From positions 1-64,000 of the forward strand of contig CAWVRN010000017.1 of NCBI GenBank assembly GCA_963932905.1: a stretch of DNA of 64,000 bases. Direction: 5' to 3'. Shown here in pieces: positions 18,406 to 21,731 of this stretch. The DNA is from an uncultured Bdellovibrio sp. (lineage in GTDB: Bacteria; Bdellovibrionota; Bdellovibrionia; Bdellovibrionales; Bdellovibrionaceae). The position numbers and the translations under genes are program-made. Below the pieces are notes generated by a model that was not told the origin of the DNA, searched no databases, and worked only from the letters and a program-made list of their open reading frames with translations. Each line of letters begins with the position of its first letter. Position 1 is the stretch's first letter.

Positions 18406-19803
18406 TCATTCCAGCTTCGTTTTAATTTGCTCGATAGAATCTACTGGCAAATTCAGCGATTTAATTTTTGCGGTTAATGTTTTAGGGAAAGGTGTCAATG
18501 TGCCAAAGGTGACTACGCTGAATAGAAATTTAACCATCGATTTCGCCAAGTCATAATGATGTTTGGCAATTAGCAGCCAGTGCAGTTTCCAGCCCAAATC
18601 AAAAGCAAAAACCCGCGACAACAAGTAGGGAGTTTTCCAATATGCTATGGCCAACTGAATTAGACTGGTACTGTCATCTAGGCTTTGCATAAAAATGACG
18701 TCTTTCTTTTTGGGCCAGATAAAGTGTTTCCACATTTTAAAAAGAAAGTAGGCTTTTTCGTAAAACATGTCGGCAAGTGAAAACAAGGCGTAGTTTTTTT
18801 CGATACGACTGGTTTGAGTGCTGCGTGATCGCACTAAATAGTAGAGTTCGCGACAACGATATTGCGTATCTGTCACCACAAATGGATCCACGTTTGGTTT
18901 CAATACTGAAATCCACTCTTGTAATTGGGGATCAGGTTGTATGCGATTCATTAAACACAAATTGCGATAAACGGGATCGTAAGCCTTTGTTGTTTGAACC
19001 AGTTTTAAAAAGTCAGTCGACGATATTCTATTTTTTTTAGTACGGAACCAATTGATGGGGTCACACAACTCTTTAAGACCTGTTTTGTAATAAGCTAAGT
19101 GAACCACAAGATGGAAAAAGAAATAGAGATCATTCAGTCGAAAACAGGGGATTCCCAAGTAGGAATGGGGTACAGTGTGGCTCCATAACGCTGTTTCGTC
19201 GATTTTTATTTTCGAAAGTGGAGTCATGATATTCCAGTGAGTTCCTAAAACACAATCCATCGTGCGCGTGAAGAAAGGTGGCCAATGATGCGAAAATTTT
19301 TCTTGCTTGCGATAATTACTGCCGCCAAGGCTAGCGGCGCATTCCAGGTTCAGGTCTTTGTAAATGACATCCAGCTGATCAAGTGACGACGTCTTAACTA
19401 GAAAATCCACATCGTTCATTTTTTTGTAGAATACGGAACCATACAGCGATTCCGCCAGCGCTTGCCCTTTCAGGATGACGAATGGAATATGATTTTCATA
19501 AATTTTTGAAAAAATAGTTTTAGCTTCCGCGTTTCTTAGCGCGTTCTGCTGACTGATTTTATCATAAGTAGATTTTAATTCAGAAAGTATTGAATCTGGA
19601 ATCTGAAGTCCATGTTTTAAGATATTTAAGTACACCAAGCTTTCGCAGGCGTTCAGCTGGACAAGGTGTAACCAAAAGTTCCACTGTTTGTTTTCTTGGA
19701 TGATGAACACAAGTGAATTCAGTCGCGAAAATTCATCAGCAGAAAGAGAAATCAAATTCAGTAAACAAATCGATTCGGCGACTTCATTTTTGTGCTTGAG
19801 CAT
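18406..19803 (-). CDS. Nucleotidyltransferase family protein (NTP_transf_5-like, Pol-beta fold)
   Basis: ILKGQALAESLY...MNDVDFLV and a downstream HW motif. Confidence 0.78.
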   Translation of the reverse strand: MLKHKNEVAESICLLNLISLSADEFSRLNSLVFIIQENKQWNFWLHLVQLNACESLVYLNILKHGLQIPDSILSELKSTYDKISQQNALRNAEAKTIFSKIYENHIPFVILKGQALAESLYGSVFYKKMNDVDFLVKTSSLDQLDVIYKDLNLECAASLGGSNYRKQEKFSHHWPPFFTRTMDCVLGTHWNIMTPLSKIKIDETALWSHTVPHSYLGIPCFRLNDLYFFFHLVVHLAYYKTGLKELCDPINWFRTKKNRISSTDFLKLVQTTKAYDPVYRNLCLMNRIQPDPQLQEWISVLKPNVDPFVVTDTQYRCRELYYLVRSRSTQTSRIEKNYALFSLADMFYEKAYFLFKMWKHFIWPKKKDVIFMQSLDDSTSLIQLAIAYWKTPYLLSRVFAFDLGWKLHWLLIAKHHYDLAKSMVKFLFSVVTFGTLTPFPKTLTAKIKSLNLPVDSIEQIKTKLE

Positions 19804-20584
19804 GGTCTACTTTCAGTATTTGATCGTTATCTTTTTCAAATCGTGTTTTAAAAACCCAGTCCCAAATACACAGCACTTTACCAAAATTATGGAACATGCT
19901 TTCGTTTTGGTGGTGCCAGCGATGTAATTCTGATGTGTTAAAAAATTTATTAATAAACATCGTACTGTGTCTGAAATTCACATGAATCAAAATTCCAGTC
20001 ACCCCACTTAAGGTAACGAACAAGTACTGCACTTGCGGACTGACAGAAAAAATCAATAAAGGCAAAAGGTAGAAAAACGCACTGAGAAATATATCCACAA
20101 CGTGAAACGTCGCGGAGTTATTCCAGTAAACGGTTGCATATTGATGGTGATATTTGTGGATTTTCCATATCAGATCAGATTTGTGACCTAGATAGTGATA
20201 GGCGTAGTAAAACAATTCCGCAATAATCAAGATGCAAAATGTTTGAACTATCGGGTTCCAGTGATGGGGCCATAGAAAACCAAGCATCGGTACCTGTGCA
20301 TTTCTAAGGTGGGTTCCGATGATATCGATAGCGAGAGAAATCAAGGGTAATTGGATAAAAGTAAAATAACTATCCCACACGAATTGCTTAGTGAACATTT
20401 TAAATCGTCGATCAAAGGGAAGATAAATCTCCAAGATAAATGCAGTCAGCATGCTGCCAATGATTAGGATCAAAGAGAGTTGCTGAAGTTCGGTCGTATT
20501 CAATCGGTCGTAAGTAAGGAAAATAGGCACGACGAAAAAAAGCAGAAACAGCGGGTATATAGCATGATGGATAATTCGGCCCAT
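19784..20584 (-). CDS. Fatty-acid hydroxylase / sterol desaturase family di-iron membrane enzyme
   Basis: His boxes HYLGH, HKYHH, IHVN, HRWHH, plus NFG...WDWVFKT and TM helices. Confidence 0.9.
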   Translation of the reverse strand: MGRIIHHAIYPLFLLFFVVPIFLTYDRLNTTELQQLSLILIIGSMLTAFILEIYLPFDRRFKMFTKQFVWDSYFTFIQLPLISLAIDIIGTHLRNAQVPMLGFLWPHHWNPIVQTFCILIIAELFYYAYHYLGHKSDLIWKIHKYHHQYATVYWNNSATFHVVDIFLSAFFYLLPLLIFSVSPQVQYLFVTLSGVTGILIHVNFRHSTMFINKFFNTSELHRWHHQNESMFHNFGKVLCIWDWVFKTRFEKDNDQILKVDHAQAQK

Positions 20585-20671
20585 GCACTAATATCATTTT
20601 TCCGTATCAAATATGTCAACGATTTGCGTCGACAGCATGGGTGTTAATGTCCCTTGATATGCCGGATAAGT

Positions 20672-21074
20672 GAGTCTCTAAACGAGACGCCCAAGTTAAA
20701 CTCAATTGCCATAAGGAAGGAATTCGACCTCAAGAAAAGTTTAGAATATCGAAGATAAGCCTAAAGTCCAGCCAGGTTCTTCCGAAAGGATATCACGACC
20801 AACGCGCGTCGGTCGAGGCAAAGAACCTGACTAACGAAAGGAGTTAGGATGCCAGGGAAACCTGATATCTGACGAGTCTCAAAGAAAAAGATCATGAAAC
20901 AAAAAAAATGATTTGGAGGCTCTGAATGCGAACGTATTTTAGAAGTAAAGCAGACAAACAAAACCTGATCCTGGAGTTATTAGAATTATCAGATCACCCG
21001 GAGACAGGCCCGCCTTAGCGGTACAAATAATAAAATGCTAAATTAGAAAAGCTTTGAGGAATCAAGGCTTTTTT
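20672..21074 (+). ncRNA. Candidate large structured ncRNA (family not recognised)
   Basis: About 10 nested helices, GAAA loops, G-U pairs that favour the + strand, A-rich linkers, no credible ORF, and a 3' intrinsic terminator. The 5' boundary is approximate. Confidence 0.6.
21047..21074 (+). terminator. Intrinsic terminator (possibly bidirectional)
   Basis: AAAAGCTTTGA-GGAA-TCAAGGC-TTTTTT. Confidence 0.8.
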
Positions 21075-21197
21075 AATTTTTAATTTGAATTGCCGTGATT
21101 GTCATTTTGAAAAAGGTGAATCCAATCTGGCCGGTTGTTGTAGTGAAGATAGTTTTATAAAAGCCAGAGGTCCCTTGGGATCAACATTCTGGAAATT

Positions 21198-21668
21198 TTA
21201 TTTTGTGACCCCGCGAAGTTTCAATGACAAACCCTTCAGAAAATAGCGCAAAACTTGATCCCCACATTTGCGATAATTGGGATGATCTTTTTTTCGCATA
21301 AAGGCGCTTAGCTCGGGTCGCCCAATTTTGTAATTAGCGGATTCAATCAAAGAGTGAATGTCATCTTCCTTAAGTTCGAAGGCGACACGAAGTTTTTTCA
21401 AAATTGTATTGTTGGTAATAGGGATCTCAAATGGCATGGGCGGTTTTGATTCGTCCTTTCCTCGTTTGAAATAAATCAAACCATCTAGAAAATGGGCCAT
21501 AATTTCATCTTCACAATAAATAGCGTCGGGATCTTCTTCTGATTTTTGCATTCGGATGATATCAGCGAGTGCCACGGTTCCGCCAGATAGGGCGACAATG
21601 TCGACTAGTTTTTGATCGGAAACTTTCAGGATGTAGCGAATACTGCGAAGGACATCATTGTTAATCAT
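21198..21668 (-). CDS. yehS: YehS/DUF1456 family protein
   Basis: MINNDVLRSIRY, FLDGLI..KRG, NNTILKKLRVAF, YRKCGDQVLRYFLKGL. ATG 21668 preferred as start. Confidence 0.88.
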   Translation of the reverse strand: MINNDVLRSIRYILKVSDQKLVDIVALSGGTVALADIIRMQKSEEDPDAIYCEDEIMAHFLDGLIYFKRGKDESKPPMPFEIPITNNTILKKLRVAFELKEDDIHSLIESANYKIGRPELSAFMRKKDHPNYRKCGDQVLRYFLKGLSLKLRGVTK

Positions 21669-21731
21669 GCGTGCGAACGTATCAGAGTTTTCAAATCGAA
21701 AACAGTTCTTTGTTTTCCCCACAAAGATTGA

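Follow-up and report, generated by a model that had tools for sequence, protein, structure and literature searches.

We examined positions 20672-21074 (+ strand) of a 64,000-nucleotide (nt) stretch of contig CAWVRN010000017.1 from an uncultured Bdellovibrio sp. (the window), in which a first-pass annotation had placed a highly structured stand-alone noncoding RNA (ncRNA) of about 400 nt. Our analysis makes it likely that the element is a monocistronic small mRNA of ~285 nt (~20796-21079, +) with a sigma-28-type promoter, a leader in which an upstream open reading frame (uORF) acts as a gate, and a small open reading frame (sORF) for a 30-residue peptide, and that it belongs with APsRNA5, an attack-phase RNA of Bdellovibrio bacteriovorus. 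It is neither a large ncRNA nor merRNA, an abundant attack-phase transcript of the same bacterial family, but a real stand-alone transcript, most likely the mRNA of a micro-protein with a putative leader-peptide gate. The stand-alone character first proposed holds: the unit is conserved on the + strand and has its own promoter and its own terminator.

A 30-codon frame with coding-type evolution

The best-conserved parts of the element are two frames, each preceded by a Shine-Dalgarno (SD) sequence, which contradicts the earlier noncoding assignment. The downstream frame, the sORF (MRTYFRSKADKQNLILELLELSDHPETGPP; 20926-21018, +), has 30 codons, ends in ...ELLELSDHPETGPP and stops at TAG, and a GGAGG SD (20915-20919) sits 6 nt upstream of it. 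Its length is equal in 8/8 species of the genus, with the GGAGG SD present, and in all 13 loci that carry a uORF leader (type B: ten from the window's genus plus two species from genus g14 and one from g60) the start codon falls exactly 30 codons before the end of the ..GPP tail. Bdellovibrio proper carries a short form (type A) made up of promoter, hairpin, SD, sORF and terminator.

The sORF shows coding-type evolution, as a protein gene would. Among the eight species, synonymous changes occur in the Leu, Pro, Gly and Thr codons of the invariant ..ELLEL....PETGPP. Over the last 21 codons of 48 distinct homologues, entropy at codon positions 1, 2 and 3 is 0.80, 0.70 and 1.24, and the ratio of nonsynonymous to synonymous polymorphism (pN/pS) is 0.49 in frame versus 0.97 and 1.13 off frame. 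A caveat is that many of the loci were retrieved with a pattern in which positions 1-2 of the E-T-G-P-P codons are set, so that the invariance of these positions is partly built in. That pattern does not force the wobble entropy of the last five codons, which is near-maximal: 1.6-1.9 bits at the third position of each of the T, G, P and P codons.

The encoded peptide is charged and hydrophilic: its N-terminus is basic, a single helix is predicted, and the tail ...E-L-x4-E-T-G-P-P is invariant. AlphaFold2 places the helix at residues 8-22 (pLDDT 82) and models the tail less confidently. This soluble-looking prediction does not match the small hydrophobic membrane peptide of a type I toxin mRNA; an antisense RNA was not looked for. 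The best score in the ESM Atlas was 0.87, below a meaningful level.

Conservation is concentrated in the C-terminal 14 residues, and type A and type B peptides have different N-terminal halves. Termination is known to be slow where Pro-Pro precedes a stop codon. Both points would suit an arrest-peptide RNA in which the last 14 residues stall the ribosome at Pro-Pro or at termination and thereby sense or hold translation capacity (elongation factor P (EF-P), release factors, Pro-tRNA) while the cell hunts without growing, as would the conservation of the uORF, which is likewise confined to the last residues before its stop. We consider this explanation unlikely. Arrest peptides such as SecM, TnaC and ApdA control a downstream gene or terminator, and here no + strand gene lies downstream for a stall to regulate; in 8 of 47 family loci between one and seven codons follow the PP (for example ETGPPVG, ETGPPH and ETGPPN), leaving the stop unfixed there; and within each type the N-terminal half retains a basic pattern compatible with a helix, as would be expected of a real small protein.

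Limits of the unit and its promoter

In the alignment of eight species of the genus, whose columns underlie all invariance figures given here, the conserved block starts at a -35 box and stops right after the terminator. A sigma-28 (FliA)-type promoter occupies 20762-20787 (+): its -35 box TAAAG (20762-20766) and -10 box CCGAAA (20782-20787) are each 100% invariant, and 33% of the columns of the 15-nt spacer between them (20767-20781) are. Outside these limits, invariant columns amount to 9% over the first 86 nt of the element as originally drawn (20672-20757), a weakly conserved spacer that precedes the promoter and is shared with the divergent minus-strand gene, and to 0% after the terminator (21080-21120). 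The ~400-nt size thus needs revision, in that its first ~90 nt precede the promoter, which itself takes up the following ~35 nt. Two of the helices proposed earlier also fall here: the TCC-GAAA-GGA hairpin is the -10 box, and the 5' arm of the 9-bp helix CAGGTTCTT/AAGAACCTG belongs to the promoter spacer, with only 53% of cells paired when the species are compared.

The motif TAAAG-N15-CCGAWA has one match in the 64-kb window, at this site, with 0.12 expected by chance, and 45 of the 47 distinct family loci have T[ACT]AA-N16-CCGA[AT]N upstream. The attack-phase promoter consensus of B. bacteriovorus is TTAAG-N16-CCGATA (PMC3627812). The genome encodes a FliA orthologue (281.7 bits, cut-off 189.6), and the transcript is probably FliA dependent in this organism too. 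A second sigma-28 -10 candidate, (A)GATAAG, just upstream of the -35 box, was not taken as the main promoter, since the distance between it and any -35-like TCAA or TAAA varies from 16 to 18 among species (judged by eye). Separately, a block AAAG(G)TCCAGCC (window 20752-20772) is conserved in type A and in the window's genus, but its register differs: it leads into the -10 box in type A (..TCCAGCCGATAAG), and in the window's genus it starts at the -35 box, with GATAAGCC before it. The shift looks like a rearranged promoter region.

By analogy with APsRNA5, transcription would start at ~20796, at the foot of a 5'-terminal hairpin, CGACC..GGTCG (20796-20815), that is present in the minimum free energy (MFE) fold. 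Other species have a hairpin of unrelated sequence at this position and a metagenome variant (L146) carries compensatory changes in it; a hairpin at the putative +1 fits a stabilising 5' stem-loop. At the other end, the predicted intrinsic terminator (21040-21079; 18-bp stem and T run), noted already in the first pass, begins 22 nt after the sORF stop codon, is invariant in 68% of its columns and reads as a terminator on both strands. A run of at least five T follows within 130 nt downstream in 46 of 47 family loci.

Public RNA libraries contain the element. Part of it occurs in 24 public runs, 11 of them on record as RNA. Four of the RNA runs, each of a different study (a sludge, a rhizosphere and a seawater metatranscriptome and an organism-labelled run), yielded one contig apiece, of 191-221 nt, that extends from 20817, 20819 or 20831 to 21010-21038 with 0-1 differences. 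Such contigs show presence in RNA libraries, not ends, strand or level, and RNA libraries can contain DNA. Positions 20300-20816 and 21040-21400 are uncovered in the four runs, and an uncovered part proves nothing.

A leader uORF and a putatively hidden ribosome-binding site

Upstream of the sORF, an AAGGAG SD (20838-20843) precedes a 7-codon uORF (ATG..TGA, 20849-20872) encoding MPGKPDI. An SD-preceded uORF of 5-7 codons ending in [D/E]-I-stop is kept in 13/13 type-B loci: its peptide is MPGKPDI in five, MPGRPDI in three and MPSRPDI, MASRPDI, MAQRPDI, MRPDI and VSSPPEI in one each, with the consensus x-x-[R/P]-P-[D/E]-I-stop and Pro codons that vary between CCT, CCG and CCA. Two metagenome loci (L133 and L142) have a uORF for MAVPPEI in front of Bdellovibrio-like sORF peptides and add to the loci with a short SD-preceded leader frame of the kind found in leader-peptide translation attenuators. 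Of the 47 distinct family loci, 12 have the uORF motif. The hairpin first proposed over the uORF (GATGcCAGG..) is indeed kept in the genus, although 7 of the 8 pairs in it show no variation.

A single base separates the uORF stop codon from an anti-SD, GAGTCTC (20874-20880), complementary to GAGGCTC (20916-20922), which overlaps the sORF SD (SD and pairing arm together, 20915-20922). The two segments pair in the MFE fold of the window, and bases just after the uORF stop pair with the sORF SD in the MFE fold of 12 of 13 type-B loci, folded from uORF stop to sORF start. In 10/10 species of the genus the SD:anti-SD duplex scores -9.5 to -14.7 kcal/mol, a value reached by 0-3.6% of shuffles; at its centre, four species have U.G, two have U-A and two have C-G, and in the remaining two the duplex is shorter (5 bp). 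A helix that hides the downstream SD within the footprint of a ribosome on the leader is therefore predicted throughout the genus, and is not significant in three type-B loci of other genera.

The anti-SD is also the 5' arm of the long-range GTCTC/GAGAC helix of the first-pass annotation, whose other arm is the Glu-Thr codons of the sORF. That helix is present, but 4 of its 5 pairs never vary and the variable one is broken (C.A) in two species where the pairing to the SD is perfect, so the SD is the better-supported partner.

These features suggest how the leader could work. A ribosome protects roughly 15 nt downstream of its P site, and one that terminates on the uORF, with its A site on the stop codon (20870-20872), would cover the anti-SD at 20874-20880. 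The sORF SD would then be free, and the helix would re-form once the ribosome left, such that the sORF would be translated only in step with translation of, or pausing on, the uORF. The nascent leader peptide may set the dwell time of the ribosome, since the last residues of the uORF are the conserved ones. Both stalling on the uORF and the direction of its effect are predictions from sequence. Under this scheme FliA would transcribe the element in the motile attack phase.

Homology to APsRNA5 and spread of the family

The suggestion of a relation to an abundant attack-phase RNA was right in kind, the relative being APsRNA5 and not merRNA. APsRNA5 was reported from B. bacteriovorus HD100 as a 176-nt RNA at 605,441-605,617 on the minus strand, with 388,842 reads per kilobase per million mapped reads (RPKM) in attack phase versus 73 in growth phase (5295-fold), second only to merRNA in Table 2 of PMC3627812 (Karunker et al. 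2013). Fig S1 of that paper prints eight attack-phase "sRNAs" (small RNAs), APsRNA5 included. Read by eye, the printed sequence holds a 5' hairpin, GAAAGGAGCC, an ATG, a 29-codon frame ending ..RELALLTETGPP and a terminator. By sequence the window's element is homologous to APsRNA5, with which it has in common a sigma-28-like promoter, the 5' hairpin, the SD, a frame of nearly the same length (30 and 29 codons) and the stand-alone layout with its own promoter and terminator and no downstream same-strand gene. It differs in being ~110 nt longer, because of the uORF and anti-SD leader, and in the N-terminal half of the peptide; APsRNA5 was moreover published as a non-coding sRNA, with no ORF mentioned in the available parts of PMC3627812.

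Two further records tie the printed RNA to the family. A record named B. bacteriovorus (L079) encodes a peptide identical to the APsRNA5 frame, and genome G070 has a pattern match at 605513-605544(-), inside the published coordinates and strand, where by eye it reads like printed APsRNA5 from its 17th base on; at the 5' end the print extends 16 nt beyond the coordinates of Table 2 (PMC3627812). In both L079 and G070 the printed 5' end falls 7 nt after GCCGATAA, preceded by TCAA at N16, and this supports the promoter assignment. As a homologue of APsRNA5, the window's RNA would be expressed in the motile, non-growing attack phase. We also saw that G070, at the coordinates of APsRNA2, APsRNA6 and APsRNA7 (L152, L155 and L156), carries complete SD-preceded frames of 15-17, 89 and 73 codons, and these RNAs could likewise be small mRNAs.

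The element occurs once in its own genome. Blastn found it in 7 of 9 other species of the genus (76-89% identity), while nothing convincing turned up in 51 genomes outside the genus, only 25-30-nt chance-level matches. At the peptide level the family is wider. A peptide profile of the window's genus recovers, in other genera of Bdellovibrionaceae and among them in Bdellovibrio genomes, small frames of 28-33 codons that end in ..E[LI][RL]EL-x4-ETGPP, for example MAKSKVVRHEYILSQEIRELSLHRETGPP in the large genus g9, and at E<=0.1 it marks 43 of 182 genomes, some of them through chance matches inside long ORFs. A degenerate pattern for the sORF tail occurs in 27 of 53 sampled genomes of the organism's own family (g1 3/3, g9 22/26, g20 2/2) and in 4 of 347 genomes from the rest of the phylum, a reversed control pattern giving 2.

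In a species-representative genome collection, 32 of 42 exact-pattern matches are family members and the other 10 chance; 31 of the 32 are labelled Bdellovibrio, Bdellovibrionaceae, Pseudobdellovibrionaceae or Bdellovibrionia, and one lies on a Bacillota-labelled contig. This last locus (L060, from a metagenome-assembled genome) is typical of the family, with the sigma-28 motif, MAKFTVRHEHQRNMELRELTAMRETGPP, a terminator and an upstream gene like that of Bdellovibrio loci, and its contig is probably mis-binned. Metagenome contigs gave 23 matches, 13 of which are family members.

RNA folding and a possible RNA-level role

The whole region (20660-21080, +) folds at -108.9 kcal/mol, better than 100 dinucleotide shuffles (z -3.84; minus strand z -2.60), as the first-pass annotation had anticipated, and the ten complementary segment pairs it listed are all present. 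The predicted transcript (20796-21079) reaches z -5.68, and without its terminator z is -2.84. RNAalifold on the 5' untranslated region (UTR) of nine species gives -6.5 kcal/mol with a covariation term of ~0; the MAFFT alignment was shifted by one column at the SD and the RNAalifold consensus is weak, for which reason the SD:anti-SD helix was scored per sequence. Given the z of -2.84 outside the terminator and the near-zero covariation, we read the element as a set of local functional hairpins, not as a large conserved architecture.

Curated families gave no match. Rfam 15 at gathering thresholds returned nothing over the whole 64-kb window, at E<=10 it returned for 20500-21250 only terminator-like chance matches and none to c-di-GMP (cyclic di-GMP) families, and ARAGORN found 0 tRNA or tmRNA (transfer-messenger RNA) genes. 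The element is therefore not explained by tmRNA, tRNA, RNase P or SRP (signal recognition particle) RNA, as had been said, nor by 6S or another curated RNA family; and since Rfam has no match even at E<=10, including for the c-di-GMP aptamer covariance model, it is not merRNA or a c-di-GMP riboswitch.

The z-scores of -3.84 and -5.68, several GNRA-like loops and the description of the published homologue as an sRNA (PMC3627812) would all agree with the ~400-nt structured ncRNA originally proposed, new or lineage-specific and possibly ligand-binding like merRNA, yet we hold that reading to be highly improbable. Most of its helices are without covariation support, being mostly invariant because they overlie codons, SD or promoter, or else not kept; its 5' quarter is unconserved; z drops to -2.84 once the terminator is left out; no Rfam family matches, those for c-di-GMP included; and the codon-periodic substitution pattern argues for coding.

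An RNA-level function alongside the peptide is easier to entertain. A terminator with a U tail, as here, is typical of Hfq-type sRNAs. The A-rich stretch AAAGAAAAAGATC (20881-20893) is unpaired in the MFE fold and invariant in 13/13 columns, and 57% of the 3' UTR is invariant although overall identity between the species is only ~77%. The RNA could thus have a dual function, encoding the peptide and also acting in trans as a base-pairing or protein-binding sRNA, for which it would use invariant single-stranded stretches (AAAGAAAAAGAUC and the 3' UTR ahead of the terminator), and the extreme abundance of the Bdellovibrio homologue, second only to merRNA (PMC3627812), would suit such a role. We rate this as possible though rather doubtful, and it could hold together with the small-mRNA reading. 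No target or binding protein came to light, the invariant stretches are not common to type A and type B loci, and they could equally be ribosome standby or RNase sites serving the mRNA.

Two further observations concern the 3' UTR and sRNA-like roles. Many type A loci (e.g. L079, L075, L029, L031, L041 and L062) have TTGGTGA and an A-rich run between the sORF stop and the terminator; the motif is absent from the window's genus, which keeps AATAAAATGCTAAATTAG (~21027-21045) instead. The idea of a CsrA sponge was dropped, as GGA motifs did not look enriched by eye.

Genomic setting

The flanking genes, FA_hydroxylase (19784-20584; OlsE-like) and DUF1456 (21198-21722), are both on the minus strand, and gene calls confirm that no + strand gene lies downstream of the element. 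FA_hydroxylase, DUF1456, an M24 peptidase and PrpD are common neighbours within the genus only, in varying order, and none of the window's neighbour genes is common to Bdellovibrio loci, so the neighbourhood offers no functional hint. A minus-strand sigma-70-like site (TTGACA-18-GATATT, 20619-20590) stands in front of the FA_hydroxylase gene, which places two divergent promoters within the 613-nt gap. The hairpin GTCTC/GAGAC at 20674-20688, the first one in the earlier annotation, is part of a full terminator in two sister species (L018/L019: GGGCGTCTC..GGGACGCCC, then T8), which have ~600 nt more DNA before the FA_hydroxylase gene; in the window it is without a T run and looks like a terminator remnant.

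This arrangement bears on whether the conserved sequence might be a minus-strand feature, a 5' leader or riboswitch of FA_hydroxylase lying between the gene and a minus-strand terminator upstream. The terminator does read on both strands, the region is upstream of the gene start, and the minus strand folds at z -2.60. We nevertheless give this almost no credence: the promoter boxes, both SDs, both frames and the wobble pattern all read on the + strand, the element keeps its structure where neighbour genes differ between species, the mapped strand of the published homologue is the sORF strand, and the sigma-70-like promoter at 20619-20590 is closer to the gene.

Points that weigh against a gated small mRNA

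The observations that count against our preferred reading, a FliA-driven small mRNA with a leader-peptide gate, concern each of its parts. For the peptide, Pfam and NCBIfam have no match, and a profile search of 1.84 billion representative proteins gave four matches, all of 30-32 amino acids and unnamed or "hypothetical protein", so that there is no longer relative; translation of both the uORF and the sORF is a deduction from their SDs and conservation. For the promoter, the -10 box of the window is CCGAAA, not CCGATA; Table 2 of PMC3627812 flags no FliA promoter for APsRNA5; the position of +1 is transferred from APsRNA5; and the contigs from RNA libraries begin at 20817-20831, ~20-35 nt downstream of it.

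For the gate, the SD is purine-rich, so any CCUC would pair with it. The SD:anti-SD duplex is no better than shuffles in the three loci of other genera (shuffle fractions 0.11, 0.26 and 0.63) and is marginal in L133 (0.07); the fraction for L142 is 0.033. Bdellovibrio proper, type A, is without the uORF, and the leader gate is therefore not essential to the family. Finally, stretches that are non-coding yet fully invariant (20881-20893 and some of the 3' UTR) hint that the RNA itself may have a further role.

Comparison with known systems

In leader-peptide attenuation, as in ermC, cat-86 and cmlA, ribosome occupancy of the leader decides whether a helix that hides the next SD forms. The leader described here resembles these in its short SD-preceded frame with conservation at the last residues, and departs from them in having a single two-strand anti-SD:SD helix, not a four-segment switch, and a regulated frame of only 30 codons. 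In translational coupling, as in rpmI-rplT and the MS2 coat and replicase genes, translation of an upstream frame melts structure over a downstream ribosome-binding site; there the upstream frame is a real protein gene, whereas here it has 5-7 codons with a motif conserved at the C-terminal end and lies ~52 nt from the next start. SgrS/SgrT, RNAIII/delta-haemolysin and SR1/SR1P are dual-function sRNAs with small ORFs. They too were first described as sRNAs and contain a conserved small ORF, but they have no sequence relation to the APsRNA5 family, for which a base-pairing role is not known. The proposed mechanism thus belongs to known kinds, leader-peptide control and SD sequestration.

merRNA is, like APsRNA5, an abundant stand-alone attack-phase transcript from the same family and of similar length to the RNA of the window (PMC3627812); it is reported there without a conserved ORF, unlike the window's RNA, which has two and matches no c-di-GMP family of Rfam. 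In the openly searchable literature, which leaves subscription journals aside, APsRNA5 is named only in the 2013 paper (PMC3627812), and among the titles listed for Bdellovibrio small proteins or sORFs none was a Bdellovibrio paper, nor did any of those listed for merRNA and Bdellovibrio sRNAs concern the RNA described here. In the available text of a 2025 promoter toolbox (PMC12622784) the terms "APsRNA" and "small RNA" are both absent. Within that literature, the coding interpretation, the family and the uORF gate seem not to have been described before, and the transcript as such has been reported from a single species.

Significance

It is a long shot that the uORF and the sORF tail (..E-T-G-P-P) are both nascent-peptide sensors that pause the ribosome at or near termination. 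If so, one of the attack-phase RNAs that these predators make in greatest abundance would gauge, or hold, their capacity for translation (EF-P, release factors, prolyl-tRNA) in two stages during the non-growing hunting phase, in parallel with the proposal that merRNA stores c-di-GMP.

Taken as a small mRNA, the element changes how a published RNA is to be approached. APsRNA5 is in print as an uncharacterised sRNA; it belongs to a family that is spread through Bdellovibrionaceae and whose core is a peptide of 28-33 residues, which means that studies of it should look for the peptide and not only for RNA targets. In the window's genus the family would offer a compact natural case of a leader-uORF gate in front of a micro-protein gene, and other published attack-phase sRNAs may likewise be small mRNAs.

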